Source: Chloroflexota bacterium (GTDB lineage Bacteria > Chloroflexota > Limnocylindria > P2-11E). Taken from it: a DNA stretch of 64,000 bases. A program made the translations under genes and the position numbers. The notes below the pieces were generated by a model that saw nothing but the letters and a program-made list of their open reading frames with translations, made no database searches and had not been told where the DNA came from. Of this stretch, positions 51,122 through 62,056 are shown piece by piece (the stretch's first letter is position 1; every line of letters starts with the position of its first letter). Location of the stretch: the NCBI GenBank assembly GCA_005889075.1, contig VBDQ01000024.1:6522-70521 (forward strand), written 5' to 3'.

Positions 51122-51721
51122 TTGGCGCATCCGGTGGTCGAGCAGCTGCGCTTCACCCGCGGGGAGTGGCTGCGCGGATTGCGTGGCGTGAGCGAGGCCG
51201 ACGGCGCCCGGCACTTCGGGCAGATGAACTCGATCAGCTGGATCGTCGGCCATCTGACCTGGCAGGAGCAGCGCTACCTGCTGCATCGGCCTCAGGGCAT
51301 CATGTTGCGTCCCGACATCCAGGCTGAGTTCGTCTCCGGCGGTCCGATGAGCACGCCCTCGCTCCGCGACATGCTCGCAGCGTGGCGGAAGGTGACCGCG
51401 ACGACGGAAGATTTTCTGGACAGGCTTACGACGCAGGCGCTTCTCGTCGACCTGCCGCTCGATGGAAAAAGAACGGGGCAGAGCCAGGGCTCGGCGATCC
51501 GTCGCATGACGTATCACTACTGGTATCACATCGGCGAGATCCAGGCGATCCGCCAGATGCTCGGCCAGCAGAAGCTCCCGATCTACGTCGGAGCGATCGA
51601 AGTGAAAGCGCCGTATCGCTCGGAAGCTACGCGCGTCGCAGCGCGACGGGCGGCACGTACTCGTCGACGAGGTCGCGGTGCCACCACGCCCCGGTCTCGC
51701 GCCGCTCCGCGGAAGTTGTGA
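51122..51721 (+). CDS. DinB family (DUF664-like) protein
   Basis: TTG at 51122, 7 nt after AGGAG. IVGHL and YHYWYHIGE motifs. The 3' tail overlaps the convergent gene. Confidence 0.65.
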   Translation: MAHPVVEQLRFTRGEWLRGLRGVSEADGARHFGQMNSISWIVGHLTWQEQRYLLHRPQGIMLRPDIQAEFVSGGPMSTPSLRDMLAAWRKVTATTEDFLDRLTTQALLVDLPLDGKRTGQSQGSAIRRMTYHYWYHIGEIQAIRQMLGQQKLPIYVGAIEVKAPYRSEATRVAARRAARTRRRGRGATTPRSRAAPRKL

Positions 51722-53051
51722 AGCGATAGAGGTAGAGCCGCGCGCGGACGAATCGCGGCCGCTTTCCTGCGAAGGGGTCCGCGCGCAGCAGGCGAAGGAC
51801 AGCGCGGTCCGCTTCGAGCAGCTTTCCGAGCAGCGGCATGAACCACTCGTGGTACATCGGCGAGCTCATGGCCGCGAACCACATCAGCCAGTCGAGCCGC
51901 AGGTGATACGGCGCGAACTGGGGCGGGCGGCGGCGGACGTCGCCGGGCTTTCCTTTGAACTCGTACTCCCGCCACGTCGTTTGCGCGGTGAGCGGCAGCG
52001 CGTCCGTGCCCTCGATGACGATCTCGTACCGCTCTTTGGTGATCGAACCGAAGGCGCCGTACGTCCCGACGATGTGGAGCGGATCGAAGCTGTAGTTCAT
52101 CAGCTGGTGGCGTGACACCAGGTTCCGCGCCGGGCGGTAGCTGAGCAGCAGGATGAGCGCCGTGACGATCAGCGCAAGCGCGAGGTAGGGCACCGGAAGC
52201 TCGAGGGCGCCGGGTGCGGACGGGATCAGACGGCGAAGCGCCGCGTCGTCGAAAGCGGAGATAGCGAGCGCGATCGTGATCACGTTGAGCCACGAGAAGT
52301 TGCCGGAGAGGAGCAGCCACGCCTGCGTGACGGTGATGACGATCCCGGCGAGTGTCGCGATCGGCTGCGGAAAGAACAGGAACCACGGTACGACGAGCTG
52401 TGCGAAGTGGTTGCCGAGCACCTCCGCGCGGTGAAGCCGCTTGGGCAGGTGATGGAAATACCAGCTCAGCGGATTTGGCATGGGCTGCGTCTCGTGGTGG
52501 TAGTAGAGGCAGGTGAGGTCGCGCCAGCAGCGATCGCCGCGCATCTTGATCAGCCCCGCGCCGAACTCGACCCGAAAGAGGAGCCATCTGAGCAGCACGA
52601 TGAGCGGGAAGAACGGTGTCACGCTCGCGGGGCCGAGGAAGATCGCGAGGAACCCGGTCTCGCACAGGAGCGATTCCCAGCCGAACGCGTAGAAGGTCTG
52701 GCCGACGTTCACGATCGAGAGATAGAGCGCCCAGAGCGCCGCCCACCACGCCATCGTGAGCGGGAGCGGAAGAAGGTCGGGCGCGCCGACGATCGCGCCC
52801 GCGGCAAGGGCGAACCCGGTCCACGCGACCGCGAGAAGGATTCGATCGGAGTAACGGACGTAGAAGAGGCTCGGCGAGCGACGGAACGGGACCGCACGAA
52901 TGAAATCGGGAACGGGGAGCAGCCCGTGCTCGCCGAGGAGGGGACGGAACTGGTTGACCGCGACCAGGAACGCGACGAGATAGATCGCGGCGAGCGCACG
53001 CTGAAAGACGAGGCGGGTCAGCCAGTAGTCCGATGCGCCGAGCCAGTCCAT
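51627..53051 (-). CDS. lipase maturation factor family (DUF1222) membrane protein
   Basis: Multi-TM protein. The N-terminus YWLTRLVFQRALAAIYLVAFLVAVNQFRPLLGEHGLLP is typical of the LMF family. ATG 53051 is preferred over 53159, which would overlap the divergent gene. Confidence 0.7.
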   Translation of the reverse strand: MDWLGASDYWLTRLVFQRALAAIYLVAFLVAVNQFRPLLGEHGLLPVPDFIRAVPFRRSPSLFYVRYSDRILLAVAWTGFALAAGAIVGAPDLLPLPLTMAWWAALWALYLSIVNVGQTFYAFGWESLLCETGFLAIFLGPASVTPFFPLIVLLRWLLFRVEFGAGLIKMRGDRCWRDLTCLYYHHETQPMPNPLSWYFHHLPKRLHRAEVLGNHFAQLVVPWFLFFPQPIATLAGIVITVTQAWLLLSGNFSWLNVITIALAISAFDDAALRRLIPSAPGALELPVPYLALALIVTALILLLSYRPARNLVSRHQLMNYSFDPLHIVGTYGAFGSITKERYEIVIEGTDALPLTAQTTWREYEFKGKPGDVRRRPPQFAPYHLRLDWLMWFAAMSSPMYHEWFMPLLGKLLEADRAVLRLLRADPFAGKRPRFVRARLYLYRFTTSAERRETGAWWHRDLVDEYVPPVALRRA

Positions 53052-53075
53052 CGGCGCGGCTAGGCTAATCGGGCG

Positions 53076-53483
53076 GTGGACCGGACCGTCGAACGGGCGC
53101 TCCGCGATGCTTCGGAGCTCGAGCTCGTGACGAGCGGCCGCGCGAGCGGCCGCGAACATTCGGTGCGGCTCCTGTTCGCGTACGACGACGGCCTGATCTG
53201 GCTACGCACGGACGAACGGCCACCGCCGCCCGACGCGAGTGGCGTGCGCCGGCGCACTGGCCGCGAGCGGGACCCTGATTGGCTCCGCAACCTCGTCGCA
53301 GCGCCCACCGCCGAGGTACGCGTGGGCGGCCTCACGCTCGCCGTCCGGTACGAAGCCTCGAGCGATCCGGTGGCGGACCTCGGGCGCGTGGTCGAGCTCA
53401 TGCGAACGAAGTACGGGGCGGACTGGGTCGAGGACTGGTATATCGATCGCGGACGCGTGCCGGTGAGGCTGCGCGTCGAGTGA
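53076..53483 (+). CDS. DUF385/deazaflavin-dependent nitroreductase-family protein
   Basis: 135 aa. A DWLRNL...P.AEVRVGG motif resembles the Ddn/DUF385 split-barrel family. Confidence 0.55.
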   Translation: MDRTVERALRDASELELVTSGRASGREHSVRLLFAYDDGLIWLRTDERPPPPDASGVRRRTGRERDPDWLRNLVAAPTAEVRVGGLTLAVRYEASSDPVADLGRVVELMRTKYGADWVEDWYIDRGRVPVRLRVE

Positions 53484-53508
53484 TCCTTTGCGAAGGGTCG
53501 ACAATGGG

Positions 53509-54861
53509 ATGGTGAACGGAATCAGATCGTTGGCGCGCGGAACGGCCGCGCTGCTCGCCGCGGTGGGTGCGGTCGGACTGGGCGCCTCGGCGTTCGGCGC
53601 CGGTTCGGGGCCGATCGTCGTCGGTCACATCTCGGGAGAGATCAATCCGATCACGGCGCGGTACGTCGACCGCGTAGTCGGCGACGGCGAAGAGAACGCC
53701 GCTGCGGCCGTGATCTTCATCATCGACACACCGGGCGGCGACATCGACTCCACGTACAAGATCACCGCGCGATTCCTTGCCGCGCGGGTCCCGATCGTGA
53801 CTTTCGTCGCTCCACAGGGCGCTCGGGCGGCGTCAGCCGGCACCTTCATCACGCTCGCGGGGAACGTCGCCGCAATGGCACCCGCTACCAACATCGGCGC
53901 GGCGCACCCGGTCGATTCGAACGGGAATGACATCCAGGGTGACCTTCGCACGAAGATCGAGAACGACGCCGTGGCGCACATCGTGAACATCGCGAAGGCG
54001 CGCGGCCGCAACGAGCAGTGGGCCGAGGACGCGGTGCGCAAAAGCGTAAGCGCGCGGGTGGACGAAGCGCTTGCCCAGAACGTCGTCGACCTTCAGGCCA
54101 ACGACGTCCCGGACCTCGCGGCGAAGATGGATGGCCGTACGGCGAAGACCGCGGCGGGCGATGTCGTCCTCGCCACCAAGGCCGCGCCGATCGAGGACGA
54201 CGCTCTCAATCCGATCGAGAGCCTGCTGCACTTCGTCGTCGACCCCCAGATCGCGGTGCTGCTGTTCACGCTCGGCACGTACGGGCTGATCTTCGAGCTC
54301 TCGAACCCTGGTTTGATCTTTCCGGGGATCGTCGGTGTGATCGCGATCTTCCTGGCGCTCTTCGCCTTCGGCACGCTCGACGCGAACGGCGCGGGGATCG
54401 CGTTCATGGTGTTCGCGATCGTCCTCTTCGCTCTCGAGATCAAGCTACCGGCGCACGGCCTCCTGACCGTCGGAGGCATCGTCTCGCTGCTGCTCGGGCT
54501 CGTGATCCTGTTCCCGCCGTTTAGGCCAACCTTCCCGGGCGTGCGGGCGACCGTCGATCCCGCGATCATCGCGGTCGTCGTTGCCGTCACCGCGGGCTTC
54601 TTCGTGTTCCTCGTGCGGATGGCCGCGCGCCTGCTTCGCCAGCCCGGCCTCGTTCCGGTACCTCTCCTCGGCCTAGTGGGGGTCGCGAAGAGCGACATCG
54701 CCCCGCAGGGTGTTGCCTACGTCGGAACCGAGGACTGGACTGCCGTCTCCGAAGGAGCCGCGATACCGCGGGGAAGCAAGGTGCGCGTCAAGCGTGTCGA
54801 GGGCATGCGGCTTATCGTCGAACCGGCGCCGGCAGGCGCCGAGGCTAGGGGAGGATCCTGA
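53509..54861 (+). CDS. NfeD family membrane-bound ClpP-class serine protease
   Basis: Signal/TM, ClpP-like domain (IDTPGG, GARAASAGTFI), TM block and C-terminal OB-like NfeD domain. Confidence 0.8.
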   Translation: MVNGIRSLARGTAALLAAVGAVGLGASAFGAGSGPIVVGHISGEINPITARYVDRVVGDGEENAAAAVIFIIDTPGGDIDSTYKITARFLAARVPIVTFVAPQGARAASAGTFITLAGNVAAMAPATNIGAAHPVDSNGNDIQGDLRTKIENDAVAHIVNIAKARGRNEQWAEDAVRKSVSARVDEALAQNVVDLQANDVPDLAAKMDGRTAKTAAGDVVLATKAAPIEDDALNPIESLLHFVVDPQIAVLLFTLGTYGLIFELSNPGLIFPGIVGVIAIFLALFAFGTLDANGAGIAFMVFAIVLFALEIKLPAHGLLTVGGIVSLLLGLVILFPPFRPTFPGVRATVDPAIIAVVVAVTAGFFVFLVRMAARLLRQPGLVPVPLLGLVGVAKSDIAPQGVAYVGTEDWTAVSEGAAIPRGSKVRVKRVEGMRLIVEPAPAGAEARGGS

Positions 54862-55766
54862 TGCAACTAACCGGTGTCGTCGCGCTCATCCTCGTGGTTA
54901 TCGCGATCATCATCCTGCGGGCGATCATTCACATCGTCCCGCAGTTCCAGCGGCTTGTGGTGTTCTCTTTCGGACGGTTCCAGGGCATGTACGGTCCGGG
55001 TCTCGTGATCATCGCTCCACCACCGATCCAGACAGTCGCCCAGACGATCGACCTCCGAGAGTTCGTCGTCGAGATCCCGCAGCAGACGTGCATCACCCAG
55101 GACAACGCCCCGATCTCGATCGACTTTCTTATCTACCAGCGGGTCATCGAAGAGCAGGCCAAGGACTCGTTCCTGAACATCCAGAACTTCCGCCAGGCCA
55201 TCCAGGGCATCGCGCAGACGACCCTGCGTGCGGTCATCGGCAACATCCCGCTCGACGATGTCCTCGCCAAGCGCGAGCAGATCAACGAATCACTGCGCGT
55301 CAAGCTCGACGAGATCACCCACCGTTGGGGGGTCAAAGTCACGAATGTCGAGATCAAAGAGCTCACACCGCCTCGCGACGTCCAGGACGCAATGAACCGG
55401 CAGCTCACCGCCGAGCGGACCCGGCGCGCCGCTGTCACCGAGGCCGAGGGCAAGAAGGCGTCGGCCATCCTCGTGGCCGATGGCGCCAAGCAGGCAGCCA
55501 TTCTCGAAGCCGAGGGGGCGCGGCAGGCGGCGATCCTGCGCGCGGAAGGATTCGCTCTCGCGCTGTCGACGATCAATCAGCAGGCGATGAACGCCGACGC
55601 GCGCACGATGACGCTTCAGTACTTCAACACGCTCAATCAGCTTGGCGCCTCGCCAGCGACGAAGTTCATCATCCCGACCGAATTCACTAACCTCGCCGGG
55701 CCGATCGCCGCGCTCGTGACGGCGCGCGGCGATGGCGACGGCGGTCAGAAGAAGGCGGGCACCTAA
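54861..55766 (+). CDS. SPFH/band-7 (stomatin-like) protein
   Basis: TGATG junction with nfeD. PHB-domain motifs (RVKLDEIT..WG.KV..VEIKE) and an Ala-rich coiled coil. Confidence 0.9.
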   Translation: MQLTGVVALILVVIAIIILRAIIHIVPQFQRLVVFSFGRFQGMYGPGLVIIAPPPIQTVAQTIDLREFVVEIPQQTCITQDNAPISIDFLIYQRVIEEQAKDSFLNIQNFRQAIQGIAQTTLRAVIGNIPLDDVLAKREQINESLRVKLDEITHRWGVKVTNVEIKELTPPRDVQDAMNRQLTAERTRRAAVTEAEGKKASAILVADGAKQAAILEAEGARQAAILRAEGFALALSTINQQAMNADARTMTLQYFNTLNQLGASPATKFIIPTEFTNLAGPIAALVTARGDGDGGQKKAGT

Positions 55767-56021
55767 AGACGGCGCTCGCGGAGAAGGTGTCGCCACGCTC
55801 GGCCAGATCGCGTGGCGTCCACCTCCTGCCTCGAGGCGGGCACGGCCATCGGCCGGACCTTCGCTCGAGCCCGGAAGGGTGAGTACACGCGTGGCGGCAC
55901 CCGCCAGGGGGCGGATGCCGCCAGCGTGTGGCGTGGTGATGGGGAGGGGGTCTCCCCTGGGCGAAGGGACCAGAGAACGAGCGATGCGACAGCCACGAAA
56001 CACCTCGATTGGGAGAGAGTT

Positions 56022-56055
56022 CGAACGGGTGTTCGCATGATAGAACGGATGTTCA
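56022..56055. promoter_or_regulatory. two tandem LexA (Cheo-type) SOS boxes
   Basis: CGAAC-GGGT-GTTCG (56022-56035) and AGAAC-GGAT-GTTCA (56042-56055). Both have perfect GAAC-N4-GTTC cores with centres 20 bp apart, in a 330-nt intergenic region. Confidence 0.65.
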
Positions 56056-56092
56056 CCATGTCAAGCGTGACGGATACTGGGGTTCTGACGGG

Positions 56093-56692
56093 GTGACGAC
56101 GCTCCTTGGCGCGCAGATCCTGCCGCAACGGCCTAGGTTCGTCCGCGAGCGCGCGGAGCTACCCGGCCACATCCTGGAGCCGGCCTGGGCGGGTACCCGG
56201 GTGCTCGTCCGGATCGGCCACGGCGAGCCGCATTTCCTCGGCTATGAGGGCCCCGTGGACGGTCCGCGTGAGCTCTACGAGGCCATCGTCGCGGTGGCAC
56301 GGTGCGAGACCGCGACCCTCGACGGCGTCCTCGTCGACGACTGGAAAGACGAGAGCGATCTCGAGGTCGATGACTCCGGCAACGCCTATACCCGACAGTT
56401 CGGCAGCCGTCAGATCTTCGCGGCGTTCGACCTGCTCGAGGTCGACGCAGAGGGGCTCCTCGAGGTCCCGCTCCTCGAGCGCAAACGCCACCTCGAGGGA
56501 GTCTTGACGTCGAGCCAGAACGTCCGGCTCACGCCGTTCGTGACCCGCGCGCTACGGACGTGGCACGACACGCTCGTGACGCAGGGATTCCGGCGCGCGG
56601 TGCTCAAGAATTGGAACAGCTCCTACGCCCCCGGCAAGACGAACGATGATTGGCTCCTGGTTGAGAAGCTGAAGGCGCCACCACCCCGATGA
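56093..56692 (+). CDS. ATP-dependent DNA ligase-like protein with substituted catalytic motifs
   Basis: The ORF is 56009..56692. GTG 56093 is the first start downstream of the SOS boxes. The LigD/LigC-like scaffold is visible: FAAFDLLEVD.EGLLEVPLLERKRHL, and SSYAPGKTNDDWLLVEKLK. Motif I reads EPAWAG instead of EPKWDG. Confidence 0.55.
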   Translation: MTTLLGAQILPQRPRFVRERAELPGHILEPAWAGTRVLVRIGHGEPHFLGYEGPVDGPRELYEAIVAVARCETATLDGVLVDDWKDESDLEVDDSGNAYTRQFGSRQIFAAFDLLEVDAEGLLEVPLLERKRHLEGVLTSSQNVRLTPFVTRALRTWHDTLVTQGFRRAVLKNWNSSYAPGKTNDDWLLVEKLKAPPPR

Positions 56693-56705
56693 TGCGGAGG
56701 CTTGC

Positions 56706-57980
56706 GTGAAGACATCGGCAGCGGTCATCGATCACACCCAGCGGGATCCATGGGAGGTGGCGCTCGAACAGTTCGGCATCGCTGCCGACAAGCTTCATCT
56801 CGATCCGAACATGCGCCGGATCCTGAGCACCACCCAGCGCGAGCTCACCGTGCATTTCCCGGTGCGTATGGCCGATGGCGTCGTCCAGGTCTTCACCGGC
56901 TACCGGGTGCAGCACAACACCACCCGCGGTCCAGGGAAGGGCGGGATCCGGTACCACCCGTCGGTCACGCTCAACGAGGTCAAGGCGCTCGCGATGTGGA
57001 TGACCTGGAAGTGCGCGGTCGTCGGCATCCCGTACGGTGGTGCGAAGGGCGGCGTCGTCTGCGACCCGAAGACGATGAGCGCGCAGCAGCTCGAGACTCT
57101 CACGCGCCGCTACACGACGGAGATCGCGCTGCTCATCGGACCGGAGCGCGACATCCCCGCGCCCGACGTCAACACGAATGCGCAGACCATGGCCTGGATC
57201 ATGGACACGTACTCGATGCACCACGGGTACACGGCACTCGCGGTCGTCACAGGGAAGCCGCTCTCGATCGGCGGCAGCGAAGGTCGCAACGAGGCGACAG
57301 CCCGAGGGGCGGTTTACACGATCATCGAGGCCTCGAAGCACCTGGGCATGGATCTGGAGGGCGCACGCGTGGTCGTCCAGGGTTACGGGAACGCCGGCAG
57401 CTTCTCGGCCAAGCTGATGGCCGAGCTCGGCGCCACGATCGTCGGTGTCTCAGATACGAGCGGCGGCATCACGAGCACGAAGGGCATCGATCCCAATCGC
57501 GTCGATGCCTATAAGCGCGAGACCGGAGCGGTCACGGGGTTCCCGGGGAGCGAGAGGATCTCGAACGCGCAGCTTCTCGAGCTCGATTGCGACATCCTCA
57601 TTCCCGCTGCGATCGAGAACCAGATCGGCGAGCACAACGCTCCGCGGATCAAGGCCAAGGTCGTCGCCGAGGCCGCGAACGGGCCGACCAGCCCAGAGGC
57701 CGACCGCATCCTGCACGACAAGGGTGTATTCCTGATCCCGGACATCCTCTGCAACGCCGGCGGCGTCACCGTCTCCTACTTCGAGTGGGTGCAGGATCTA
57801 CAAAACCTTTTCTGGCGCGAAGCGACGATCAACGCCCGCCTCAAAGAAGTCATGGTGAAGTCGTTCAACGACGTGCTGGAGATGTCCAAGAAGCACAAGG
57901 TCGACATGCGCACCGCCGCGTACATGGTGGCCGTCGCCCGCGTCGCCGAGGCAACGCAGACGCGAGGGATATACCCCTAG
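56706..57980 (+). CDS. gdhA: Glu/Leu/Phe/Val dehydrogenase family, glutamate dehydrogenase
   Basis: GPGKGGIRYHP, GGAKGG and GYGNAG motifs. Confidence 0.9.
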   Translation: MKTSAAVIDHTQRDPWEVALEQFGIAADKLHLDPNMRRILSTTQRELTVHFPVRMADGVVQVFTGYRVQHNTTRGPGKGGIRYHPSVTLNEVKALAMWMTWKCAVVGIPYGGAKGGVVCDPKTMSAQQLETLTRRYTTEIALLIGPERDIPAPDVNTNAQTMAWIMDTYSMHHGYTALAVVTGKPLSIGGSEGRNEATARGAVYTIIEASKHLGMDLEGARVVVQGYGNAGSFSAKLMAELGATIVGVSDTSGGITSTKGIDPNRVDAYKRETGAVTGFPGSERISNAQLLELDCDILIPAAIENQIGEHNAPRIKAKVVAEAANGPTSPEADRILHDKGVFLIPDILCNAGGVTVSYFEWVQDLQNLFWREATINARLKEVMVKSFNDVLEMSKKHKVDMRTAAYMVAVARVAEATQTRGIYP

Positions 57981-59215: not shown

Positions 59216-62056
59216 GTGGATCTCGAGACCACCGGTTACGACAACGAGAGCGAGCGGATCATCGAGATCGGCGCCGTGCGCGTGCGCCTCGGCGACGACG
59301 GCGCAGTCACGTTGGGCGAGCGCTTCGTCACGTTCGTCGATCCCGGGCGTGAGCTGAGTCGGACGATCACGCGGTTGACCGGGATCGTCAACGCGGACCT
59401 CGTAGGAGCTCTGCCTCCCGAGTCGGCGGTCGCGGAGTTCACCCGTTTCGCGTTCCGCGACGGTATTCCGTGGCTTCTAGGACACAACGTCGGGTTCGAC
59501 GTCGCCTTCCTCGAGCGATCGGGGATGCCAATCGGCGCCGAGCGCATCGACACCGCGGAGCTCGCGTCGATCGTCCTGCCGTCGGCCCCGAGCTACGCCT
59601 TGCAGCGCCTCGCCGCCGATGCCGCGATCACACCTGTGAGCGCACACCGCGCACTCGACGACGCGATCACGTCCGCGCTCGTGCTGGGCCATCTGGCGCG
59701 GATCGCTCGCGGGCTGCCGCCGCTCGTATTGAGCGAGATCGCCGCCGTGAGCGCGCTGCTCGGTATCGCTCCCGCGAACTTCTTCCAAGATGCAGCCGCG
59801 AACGCGACACGAAATGCATGGAACCAGGACGGGATTTCGCACGCCGACGAGGCTCGAGAGGTAACAAGGACCGACGACGCCCGCGAGGTGCCTCCAGGCG
59901 ACGAGGCGCGAGGGGTGTCTCTCGGCGCAGCGGGAGAGGGGCGGGGGGTCCCCAGGGACCCGCGAGCACGAGAGATACCCCGAGAAGCCTCGTCGGCCGG
60001 TGGTCGCGAAGCCGCGTCGGCCTCCACGGATTCCGTTGGCGACGCAGCCTCGCCCGCATTCACGGTCGAGAGCGCGTTCGCACCCGACGGTCCGCTCGCG
60101 ACGTCGATGCACGGCTACGAGGATCGACCCGAGCAGCGCGAGCTCGCGGCGGCGATCGAACGCACCCTGGCCGACGGCGGCGCCCTCGTCGCCGAAGCGG
60201 GGACGGGAGTGGGGAAGTCGATCGCGTACATCGTCCCGCTGCTCGGCGCGGCTGCGGTCGGGGAGCGCGGGATCGTGTCGACGCACACCCTTCCGCTCCA
60301 AGACCAGCTTGTCCGCAAGGACATTCCCGCGGTGCAGGCGGCGCTCGGCACGGAGGTCAAAGTCGCGGTGCTCAAAGGTCGGGCCAACTATCTCTGCCCG
60401 CGTCGCTGGCAGATCTTCCGCGGCGCGGTCGCCACGCGCGAGGAAGCGCGGCTGCTGTCCAAGACCTTGGTATGGCGGTCGGCGACCGAGACCGGTGACC
60501 GCGCCGAGCTCAATCTCATGAGCGGGGAGAGCGAGCTCTGGTCGCGTATCTCGGCCAACGACGAGTCGTGCGATCAGCGTCGGTGCAAGCGGACCCCCGG
60601 CGGCTGCTACCTTCAGCGCGCGCGCGAAGCGGCAGCGGAGGCGGCGATCGTGGTGGTCAACCACGCGTTGCTGCTCCAGGACGCGAGGATGCGTGGCGCG
60701 CTGCTTCCGCAGGCGGAGAACCTCGTCGTCGACGAAGCCCACCGGCTCGAGGATGTCGCGACCGATGCGTTCGGGCTCGAGCTCTCCGAACCACGGCTGC
60801 GCCGCGATCTCGCGCGGGCCTCGCACTCGCTTGCGGTCACATCCGCTCTTCGCGATCCCGCCCGAGCCCAAGGCGCCGAGCGGATTCGCGCCGAGGTCCA
60901 GCGCGCGCTCGAGCGGACCGACGAGCTTTTCGTGTCACTCGCGCGGCTGCTTGCGACGCCGGCCGGGCCCGCCGAGGACCGAGTTCGCGTTACCGCGGGA
61001 CTGCGCGCGAGCGACGACCGCTGGCTTCCCGTCGAGCTCGCCGGCGAGCGGCTCGCCGATGCGCTCGCGGGCATCGGCTTCGGCGCCGAGAGCCTCGCGG
61101 GGCTGGGAGGCGATGAAGACGAGCTGGCCGAGCTGGCGACCGCGATGGCCGATATCGCCGCCGCGCGCAACACGATCGACCGCGGGGTGCACAAACCGCG
61201 TGACAACGACATCGTGTGGGTCGATCGCGATAACGATGGCGCGCTCGTGCTCCATGTCGCCCAGACGCATCTCGGCGGGGTACTGCGGCGGCGGCTCGTC
61301 GACGCGCACCGTTCCGTCGTCTTGACCTCGGCAACGCTCGCGGTCGCGGGCTCGTTCGAGTTCGCGGTCGATCGGTTCGGGATCAGGGACATCGCCGACA
61401 CCATCTCCGTCGGCTCGCCGTTCGACCACCGCCGTCAGGCGCTTCTCGTGCTCCCGGACGACATCGCGCTTCCCGGCGAGGAGCGGTTCGCGGAAGACGC
61501 GGCGCGGACGATCGACGGCGTCGCGCGCGCGCTCGGCGGACGGACGCTCGTGCTCTTCACGGCGCATCGGACCCTCCGCGACGTCGCCGCCCGCTTGGGT
61601 GCCCTCGAGCAGGAAGGCCTCGCGGTCCTGGTGCAAGGTGTGGATGGCTCGCGTCGCGCCCTTCTCGAACGGTTCGCGCAAGGGCGCGCGGTGCTGCTCG
61701 GGACGCAATCGTTCTGGGAGGGCGTCGATCTTCCGGGCGACATCCTGCGGTGCGTCGTCATCGCGCGCTTACCATTCAGCGTCCCGGACGATCCCCTCAT
61801 CCAGGGGCGCGCGGAGCGCTACGACGATCCTTTCGCGGAGTTCCAGCTTCCGCAAGCGGCGCTGCGGCTGCGGCAAGGGTTCGGGCGGCTCATTCGCACC
61901 AAGAGCGACTACGGTGCGGTCGTCCTCCTTGATCGCCGCGTCGTCACCAAGGATTACGGCGAGGTGCTTCTCGCGTCGCTTCCCGACGCACGGACCGAGA
62001 CTCTCGCGTGCGATGCGATCGCGCGGCGCGTCCAGGAATGGTGCGACCGGGGATGA
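59216..62056 (+). CDS. dinG: bifunctional DnaQ-like 3'-5' exonuclease / DinG family helicase (canonical-start version)
   Basis: ExoI DLETTG, ExoII, ExoIII H..LDDA. Helicase motif I AGTGVGKS, DEAH box (VVDEAHRL) and C-terminal DinG/Rad3 motifs. The beta-1 strand of the exonuclease lies upstream of 59216 (in-frame CTG at 59195). Confidence 0.85.
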   Translation: MDLETTGYDNESERIIEIGAVRVRLGDDGAVTLGERFVTFVDPGRELSRTITRLTGIVNADLVGALPPESAVAEFTRFAFRDGIPWLLGHNVGFDVAFLERSGMPIGAERIDTAELASIVLPSAPSYALQRLAADAAITPVSAHRALDDAITSALVLGHLARIARGLPPLVLSEIAAVSALLGIAPANFFQDAAANATRNAWNQDGISHADEAREVTRTDDAREVPPGDEARGVSLGAAGEGRGVPRDPRAREIPREASSAGGREAASASTDSVGDAASPAFTVESAFAPDGPLATSMHGYEDRPEQRELAAAIERTLADGGALVAEAGTGVGKSIAYIVPLLGAAAVGERGIVSTHTLPLQDQLVRKDIPAVQAALGTEVKVAVLKGRANYLCPRRWQIFRGAVATREEARLLSKTLVWRSATETGDRAELNLMSGESELWSRISANDESCDQRRCKRTPGGCYLQRAREAAAEAAIVVVNHALLLQDARMRGALLPQAENLVVDEAHRLEDVATDAFGLELSEPRLRRDLARASHSLAVTSALRDPARAQGAERIRAEVQRALERTDELFVSLARLLATPAGPAEDRVRVTAGLRASDDRWLPVELAGERLADALAGIGFGAESLAGLGGDEDELAELATAMADIAAARNTIDRGVHKPRDNDIVWVDRDNDGALVLHVAQTHLGGVLRRRLVDAHRSVVLTSATLAVAGSFEFAVDRFGIRDIADTISVGSPFDHRRQALLVLPDDIALPGEERFAEDAARTIDGVARALGGRTLVLFTAHRTLRDVAARLGALEQEGLAVLVQGVDGSRRALLERFAQGRAVLLGTQSFWEGVDLPGDILRCVVIARLPFSVPDDPLIQGRAERYDDPFAEFQLPQAALRLRQGFGRLIRTKSDYGAVVLLDRRVVTKDYGEVLLASLPDARTETLACDAIARRVQEWCDRG
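59844..59990 (+). repeat. imperfect tandem repeats encoding a D(E/D)AR(E/G)V-type low-complexity linker
   Basis: DEAREV TRTDDAREV PPGDEARGV ...GEGRGV PRDPRAREI, located between the exonuclease and helicase domains. Confidence 0.6.

Follow-up and report, generated by a model that had tools for sequence, protein, structure and literature searches.

A probable LexA-repressed promoter region between a conserved small gene and a lysine-less DNA ligase homologue in Candidatus Limnocylindria (Chloroflexota)

LexA of Gram-positive bacteria acts on a palindromic operator, the Cheo box, with the extended consensus CGAAC-RNRY-GTTCG (also given as CGAAC-RNRY-GTTYC), and Chloroflexi such as Dehalococcoides reportedly use a GAAC-N4-GTTC box as well. 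In the operators of Bacillus subtilis and Mycobacterium tuberculosis, including the multi-box divergent region of lexA and yneA, two boxes stand about two helical turns apart and overlap the core promoter elements. The SOS division inhibitors YneA, SosA, ChiZ and DivS, which are small, lineage-restricted and fast-evolving, are each half of a divergent pair, with LexA boxes directly occluding their promoter. Their genes lie next to lexA, and the proteins possess a single transmembrane segment, in most cases together with a LysM domain; SosA is 77 amino acids (aa) long (PMC6851548). The GAAC-N4-GTTC palindrome itself has been attributed to LexA of Firmicutes and Actinobacteria (PMC3323433). Here we describe a 64-kb stretch of DNA (contig VBDQ01000024.1 of assembly GCA_005889075.1, hereafter the window), whose host belongs to the class Candidatus Limnocylindria of the Chloroflexota according to the closest proteins and contigs, and in which this palindrome occurs twice between a stomatin gene and the gene of a DNA ligase homologue without the catalytic lysine, here called the pseudoligase. 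We consider it probable (roughly 0.7) that the locus is a LexA-repressed divergent promoter region, in which the boxes would sit in the promoter of an unannotated small gene on the minus strand, with the dead-ligase gene and the glutamate dehydrogenase gene gdh running divergently from it.

The two boxes (Table 1) stand 20 bp apart from centre to centre in the local sequence gagttCGAACGGGTGTTCGcatgatAGAACGGATGTTCAccatgtcaag. No other exact GAAC-N4-GTTC site exists in the window, for which 0.85 would be expected, and two such sites within 32 nucleotides (nt) are far beyond chance. One-mismatch sites are about as frequent as chance predicts (27 observed, 24 expected), and beyond the pair no further SOS box was found in the 64 kb. 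Conservation was followed in 80 species-level loci of related soil Chloroflexota that were collected through their pseudoligase; for the counts of promoters and boxes the window was added and one locus without upstream sequence (L076) was dropped, which again gives 80 sequences. Upstream of the pseudoligase orthologue both boxes are present in 64 of the 80 loci and one box in another 12. A copy of box 1 could be scored in 67 sequences (80 loci plus the window) and box 2 in all 80 with upstream sequence. The arms are invariant and the centres variable, with 10 different tetramers in box 1 and 27 in box 2, and the inner four bases follow RNRY in 66/67 and 46/80, respectively, the family consensus of box 1 being TCGAAC-RGRC-GTTCG. 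The locus shares with the Gram-positive operators the palindrome, its flanks, the R...Y centre and the spacing of the boxes over core promoter elements, and differs from them in that neither lexA nor a known SOS gene is attached to it, only an orphan small open reading frame (ORF) and possibly the pseudoligase-gdh operon.

It is on the minus strand that the core promoter elements of this region are found. A consensus scan from 55700 to 56750 returned a single promoter-like site, a sigma-70-type promoter that agrees with the consensus at 11 of 12 positions, and both boxes are built into its predicted core elements: box 2 lies between the -35 and -10 hexamers, and box 1 begins 2 nt past the -10 element and spans the expected transcription start. 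The -35 hexamer TTGACA is exact in 80/80 sequences, the -10 element has the form TAnnnT in 78/80, and the spacer measures 16 nt in 73/80. In 73 of the 80 sequences the last box is separated from TGTCAA by exactly 4 nt, and the distance from box to ligase-like ORF varies between 29 and 233 nt across the loci.

As an unbiased control, public metagenomes were scanned for the pattern TTGACA-N4-GAAC-N4-GTTCTA and 120 stretches were examined. Directly downstream of the pattern stand eight lexA genes, two imuA-like genes and two genes of Lhr-like helicases, and the present small ORF follows in 13 stretches; in one of these the contig stops at a distance of 40 nt, and the pseudoligase is present in 11 of the remaining 12. 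Because the pair fits the LexA consensus, is conserved, and has the same arrangement as the sites before lexA and imuA-like genes, the reading of both boxes as bona fide LexA-type operators is supported, as the preliminary description of this DNA had proposed for what it called twin SOS boxes 20 bp apart; by its pattern the operator itself looks like an ordinary SOS operator of Gram-positive type.

Two groups among the metagenomic stretches deserve mention. The Lhr-like DEAD-box helicase and imuA-like genes (L121, L204, L190 and L203) lie on high-GC contigs behind a box-in-spacer promoter, with the start codon approximately 38 nt from the -35 element, and look like leaderless SOS genes. In another four stretches (L143, L147, L159 and L160) the pattern reads TTGACA-N4-GAAC-(GATC/GGTC)-GTTCTA before genes of the TetR family, which may be LexA targets or carry auto-operators that mimic the box.

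Downstream of the minus-strand promoter lies the small ORF, whose product begins and continues as MAVASLVLWSL...WRVPPRVYSPFRARAKVRPMAVPA...GRAWRHLLRERRL (full translation MAVASLVLWSLRPGETPSPSPRHTLAASAPWRVPPRVYSPFRARAKVRPMAVPASRQEVDATRSGRAWRHLLRERRL) and is a Pro/Arg-rich protein with an isoelectric point (pI) of 12.0 and a net charge of +10.7. A hidden Markov model (HMM) of the small ORF matches 78 of the 79 sequences with enough upstream DNA, every time on the minus strand, and the homologues include those of the most distant loci (L072, L073, L078 and L084). Shine-Dalgarno sequence, start codon and the N-terminus MA(I/V)A are kept across loci, and the invariant or near-invariant positions form the pattern M-A-x-A ... 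(W)R-x-P-P-R-V-Y-S-P-(F/Y)-x-x-R-R-L-x-R-P-M-A-V, with WRxPPRVYSP(F/Y)xxRRLxRPMAV as the core motif. The ratio of nonsynonymous to synonymous substitution rates (dN/dS) is 0.27 in this 23-codon core and 0.50 overall, and the pooled ratio of nonsynonymous to synonymous differences (pN/pS) is 0.43 in the small-ORF frame; of the five other frames, four have 1.2-1.8 and the fifth, at 0.57, is a plus-strand frame that shares its third positions with the small-ORF frame. That the gap codes on its plus strand was considered and rejected, the plus-strand frames being open in only 17-25 of 64 loci and all HMM matches lying on the minus strand. From these patterns of conservation the small ORF is judged to be a conserved coding gene.

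Gene callers mostly miss it: a collection of 5.8 billion proteins holds 27 calls of the small ORF, all unnamed and starting MAIAIA..., and the protein has no match in Pfam, NCBIfam, PADLOC or PHROGs. No transmembrane segment was detected, as the maximum of the 19-residue Kyte-Doolittle average has a median of 0.59 and a highest value of 1.33, below the usual threshold of ~1.6. It resembles YneA, SosA, ChiZ and DivS in being small, lineage-restricted and fast-evolving, in having (as judged here from geometry) a promoter directly occluded by LexA boxes, and in forming half of a divergent pair. It differs from them in that it diverges from the pseudoligase in all loci with no lexA in the flanks, and in that the protein has neither a transmembrane segment nor LysM (no Pfam domain at all) and is extremely basic and Pro/Arg-rich.

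In undamaged cells two LexA dimers would occlude the promoter of the small gene, and upon DNA damage the RecA-stimulated self-cleavage of LexA would free it, so that the small basic protein would be the primary SOS output of the locus. If so, the locus adds an orphan small protein to the few lineage-specific SOS effectors on record, and does so in a class known mainly from soil and freshwater metagenomes and with almost no experimental genetics.

Table 1. Features of the locus in the window, in window coordinates
Feature	Position	Strand	Remarks
Stomatin/Band_7 gene	54861..55766	+	Pfam match; converges on small ORF; kept upstream in 77 loci
Small ORF, unannotated	55763..55996	-	GTG start 55996; Shine-Dalgarno GAGG 56006-56003; stop 55765-55763; 77 aa
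LexA box 1 CGAACGGGTGTTCG	56022-56035	no strand	GAAC-N4-GTTC core 56023-34; covers predicted start of minus-strand promoter
Sigma-70-type promoter	56037..56064	-	-35 TTGACA 56064-56059; 16-nt spacer; -10 TATCAT 56042-56037; start predicted ~56030
LexA box 2 AGAACGGATGTTCA	56042-56055	no strand	GAAC-N4-GTTC core 56043-54; fills 16-nt spacer of minus-strand promoter
-10-like GATACT, putative pseudoligase promoter	56073..56078	+	14 nt before GTG; -35 position TGTTCA 56050-56055, inside box 2
Pseudoligase	56093..56692	+	GTG start; 199-aa LigD-type nucleotidyltransferase (adenylation) domain, no OB domain; pI 5.6
Glutamate dehydrogenase gene (gdh)	56706..57980	+	Pfam ELFV_dehydrog; starts 13 nt after pseudoligase stop; own GGAGG

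The gene on the other side of the boxes has its closest described relatives in the ligase domain of M. tuberculosis LigD (PDB 1VS0, 6NHZ) and the other ligases of Pfam family PF01068, with which it shares the fold and the order of motifs. PF01068 (DNA_ligase_A_M) matches the C-terminal half of the pseudoligase with 29.8 bits against a cutoff of 26.2, and its sequence matches in the PDB are archaeal DNA ligases. The 12 NCBIfam matches all stay far under their cutoffs, the best being TIGR02779, the ligase domain of non-homologous end joining (NHEJ), with 45 bits against 228. A Foldseek search with the AlphaFold model, itself of modest quality (predicted local distance difference test score, pLDDT, 59.5; the N-terminal 32 and C-terminal 50 residues unreliable), returned ATP-dependent DNA ligases only among the top 50. 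The ligase adenylation fold proposed earlier is borne out by these searches. PADLOC does not assign the pseudoligase to a defence system, and no ExKxDGxR motif of a canonical ligase is present in any frame of the window.

Alignment to active LigD-like proteins locates the changes. Motif I, E-x-K-W-D-G-x-R in active enzymes, reads E-P-A-W-A-G-T-R, with Ala in place of the lysine nucleophile; motif III D-G-E reads D-G-V, motif IV L-E-G-x-x-A-K reads F-R-R-A-V-L-K with Lys172 kept, and motif V W-L-K-x-K reads W-L-L-V-E; motif IIIa is kept as FAAFDLL. The preliminary description had stated that all catalytic residues are replaced, which is right for the Lys and Asp of motif I, the Glu of motif III, the Glu-Gly of motif IV and the lysines of motif V, but too sweeping for the motif I Arg, the motif III Asp-Gly, motif IIIa and the motif IV Lys, all of which are retained. 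The pseudoligase also ends approximately 10 residues past motif V, where active relatives run more than 100 residues further through the OB domain, and, as compared with LigD, it has neither a polymerase nor a phosphoesterase module and no ku nearby. A family-specific acidic loop, W-x-D-E-x-D-L-E-x-D-x-x-G-N-A, sits between motifs III and IIIa.

The same description took the intact frame as an argument against decay and suggested a look at orthologues, which was taken here. An independent gene call (P0001) likewise gives 199 aa and is 99% identical to the pseudoligase of the window. The frame is intact in 79 sequences, over which the median dN/dS (method of Nei and Gojobori) is 0.25. In 27 family members that are 65-87% identical to the pseudoligase of the window, the Val of motif III is invariant, as are 66 residues in total, and no K stands where the lysine used to be; across the family this place is taken by A, E, D or C. 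With this dN/dS and with substitutions fixed family-wide, the pseudoligase is best described as a selected pseudoenzyme under purifying selection, not a decaying gene. Judging by its motifs, it should be unable to self-adenylylate or to seal DNA by the canonical mechanism, and would most likely work by binding, its ligand being nicked or 5'-phosphate DNA, an adenine nucleotide or another protein. The preliminary description had suggested a nick or end binder or a decoy. A selected ligase fold without the chemistry beside an SOS promoter offers an entry point to the non-catalytic roles of ligase domains.

Two observations concern the start of this gene. In the closest relatives (L001-L017) no ATG, GTG or TTG is found near the conserved N-terminus; the sole candidate in frame is a CTG that follows the -10-like hexamer by about 6 nt, which points to a start that is leaderless or non-canonical. 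The database calls P0007 and P0009, on the other hand, extend the pseudoligase ORF back through the LexA boxes.

The loss of the lysine is not restricted to this subfamily. Among the best 150 representatives at 50% identity, motif I could be recognised in 101, of which 70 lack the lysine and carry the signature E-P-x-W-x-G-x-R (median length 232 aa), while 27 keep KxDG (median 330 aa); a Pro precedes the former Lys position in 68 of the 70. The members of this EPxWxGxR clade share a domain-only architecture of approximately 200-250 aa, in which the motif IV Lys is kept and the Glu of motif III is replaced by Val, Tyr or Ile. The subfamily of the window pseudoligase has at least 535 metagenomic proteins. 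The sister branch, searched with a profile, comprises at least 1557 clusters, which their sources name 'ATP-dependent DNA ligase', 'LigD' or 'hypothetical protein'. The lysine-less clade is large and uncharacterised, and it is labelled as ligases in the databases. Proteins that bear the names 'ATP-dependent DNA ligase' or 'LigD' and, to judge from their motifs, cannot be ligases would number at least 535 in the subfamily of the window and at least 1557 clusters in the sister branch, which matters where NHEJ is inferred from metagenomes. We found no paper on lysine-less ligase domains or on the SOS response of Limnocylindria.

Sister pseudoligases with the signature EPLWxGxR and a length of about 230 aa are encoded in L082 (4001-4699), L205 (5001-5693) and L206 (5001-5705), within a block of HNH, CCA/polyA polymerase, TPR and epimerase genes, sometimes a transporter of the MFS type, the pseudoligase, a protein of 380-464 aa and a glycosyltransferase. 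The 380-464 aa protein has no significant Pfam family; a sub-threshold match to Glycos_transf_2 was seen in L082 alone. These subfamilies differ from the window locus in their gene neighbourhood and have neither the small ORF nor gdh. L082, the one of the three that was scanned for boxes, has no GAAC-N4-GTTC box, and its upstream gap of 69 nt is too short for the small ORF.

How far the pseudoligase itself is under SOS control depends on its own promoter, for which a hexamer xATACT is the candidate. It occurs within 45 nt of the pseudoligase ORF in 68 of the 80 sequences, is TG-extended in 44, and its position tracks the ORF and not the boxes. In the window and in 41 of the 68 loci box 2 ends 16-24 nt upstream of xATACT, that is, over the -35 position. 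Since box 2 covers this position in the window, the pseudoligase-gdh transcript would probably be co-induced in the window lineage. Such co-regulation by LexA is plausible there; the geometry, which holds in 41 of the 68 loci, is not a conserved feature of the family. In the distant locus L084, a TATACT lies about 37 nt beyond TGTCAAG, well clear of the boxes. The preliminary description is qualified here on two points. The ligase homologue was taken to be the only gene that the boxes can control, which is not supported in view of the strong promoter that points along the minus strand to the conserved 77-aa ORF; and its idea of a damage-inducible ligase homologue keeps its footing in the window, where box 2 overlies the -35 position of GATACT, and loses it as a general rule. 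In our reading, the dead ligase would not be the primary target of the boxes, and the hidden SOS gene would be. A separate reading of TGTCAAG-N7-GATACT as a promoter of the RecA-NDp/PafBC-like type was rejected, TGTCAA being fixed to the LexA box and GATACT lying 6-200 nt away.

Several results weigh against the reading as a divergent region repressed by LexA. A tblastn search of the window and the 80 loci with the Escherichia coli proteins turned up neither lexA nor recA, so that a LexA of the host is inferred. The palindrome is not exclusive to LexA, as four leaderless TetR-family genes stand behind the same promoter pattern. Outside its 23-codon core the small ORF is under weak constraint (dN/dS 0.67), its product has no predicted fold (predicted template modelling score, pTM, 0.19; mostly coil with a C-terminal helix), and 41-51 of 64 loci of this GC-rich DNA also keep the remaining minus-strand frames open. 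Judged by E. coli criteria, the promoter on the plus strand is weak, and the consensus scan did not call it; for the other 27 of the 68 loci, the distance from the boxes downstream to its -10 element is 29-210 nt. The absence of lexA and the TetR-family genes, which possibly carry TTGACA-N4-GAAC-N4-GTTCTA as their own operators, would fit palindromes that serve a regulator other than LexA, for example one of the TetR family, with the locus outside the SOS response. We hold this to be very improbable: the TetR-linked centres are near-fixed whereas those of the present boxes vary with R...Y kept, the tandem arrangement of 20-22 bp and the identical architecture before lexA and imuA-like genes point to LexA, and none of the 80 species has a regulator gene beside the locus. 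It is also improbable that the boxes exist to repress the ligase-like gene as a damage-inducible product and that the minus-strand features are incidental. The pseudoligase does adjoin the boxes in every locus, and the placement of box 2 over the -35 position speaks for such a role where it holds; however, the box is locked to the minus-strand TTGACA and not to the ligase-like ORF, the only strong promoter is that of the minus strand with a conserved coding ORF downstream, and the core promoter of the plus strand does not include the boxes in L084 and 26 further loci.

A further alternative accepts the minus-strand transcript and denies that it codes: SOS would induce an antisense RNA that reaches into the 3' end of the nfeD-stomatin operon, and the ORF would be a by-product of GC-rich DNA. 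The stop codons of small ORF and stomatin overlap by 4 nt (55763-55766) and no terminator-like sequence is present there, and therefore SOS-induced transcription would enter the nfeD-stomatin operon in antisense; the open minus-strand frames and the lack of a predicted fold or family match agree with this as well. We nevertheless give it little credence, given that the peptide motif is kept despite diverged DNA together with Shine-Dalgarno sequence, start and N-terminus, that pN/pS separates the small-ORF frame from four others and the frame at 0.57 is closed in most loci, and that Rfam has no match in the gap, its only hits in the window being three tRNAs elsewhere. A coding small ORF and an additional antisense effect are compatible and do not exclude each other. 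As for the pseudoligase, it may be unrelated to DNA and act as a nucleotide-binding accessory or regulatory partner of glutamate dehydrogenase, its place beside an SOS promoter being inherited synteny. This is unlikely in our estimate, and we know of no precedent for it. The gdh gene is directly downstream in 79 of the 80 loci and also in L084, with no terminator-like site found between the two genes, which are probably co-transcribed; the geometry of boxes and pseudoligase promoter is not conserved; and elements of the adenine pocket (motif I Arg, motif IIIa, motif IV Lys) are kept where the chemistry is lost. Against this, the whole block from NfeD to DinG is syntenic, so the adjacency may be inherited without functional meaning, and the sister subfamily does not stand beside gdh. 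Decay of the ligase-like gene, for which the loss of all chemistry-bearing residues and the truncation before the OB domain might be taken, has practically no chance and can be regarded as ruled out by the dN/dS and the family-wide substitutions, more than 500 metagenomic proteins also having the frame intact.

Within the proposed LexA-repressed divergent region, the basic small protein is the first candidate for a partner of the acidic pseudoligase, the product of the adjacent gene. One can imagine a two-part SOS module of Limnocylindria in which, once LexA is cleaved, the Pro/Arg-rich peptide docks through WRxPPRVYSP...RPMAV on the acidic loop of the pseudoligase, and the pair marks, protects or hands over broken ends, or holds the cell cycle; the EPxWxGxR clade would then comprise readers of DNA breaks or nucleotides that were derived from ligases. 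We offer this as a speculative and rather doubtful proposal. That the pseudoligase in such a module keeps a ligase-like pocket for a nick or 5'-phosphate without sealing it is a similarly tentative suggestion.

The gene order around the boxes is conserved as a syntenic block of NfeD, Band_7, small ORF, pseudoligase, GDH and a DinG-like helicase, and in the window the stomatin stop (55766) and the pseudoligase GTG (56093) enclose a gap of 326 nt. NfeD, a ClpP-like membrane protease, and stomatin (53488-55766) are encoded by the classic pair of overlapping genes, in which the stomatin ATG (54861) overlaps the nfeD stop. Further downstream on the plus strand (59216-62056), an RNase T-type exonuclease and a DinG-type helicase are fused in a protein of 946 aa; no LexA box lies upstream of its gene, and 69 loci have this fusion conserved 1.3-4.9 kb past the pseudoligase. 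Some of the contigs call for caution: those of L001, L009, L062, L063 and L065, which carry the Limnocylindria-specific locus, were binned in metagenome-assembled genomes of Udaeobacter, Bathyarchaeia, Saccharimonadales and Acidiferrales, probably through contamination, and L131 carries the locus on both strands of a 4.4-kb contig, likely an assembly artefact of inverted-repeat type. On the far side of nfeD, the minus strand of the window (51627-53159) encodes a 510-aa homologue of lipase maturation factor (Pfam LMF1 and LMF1_C), a family best known from proteins of the eukaryotic endoplasmic reticulum, and this gene is conserved upstream in 41 loci.

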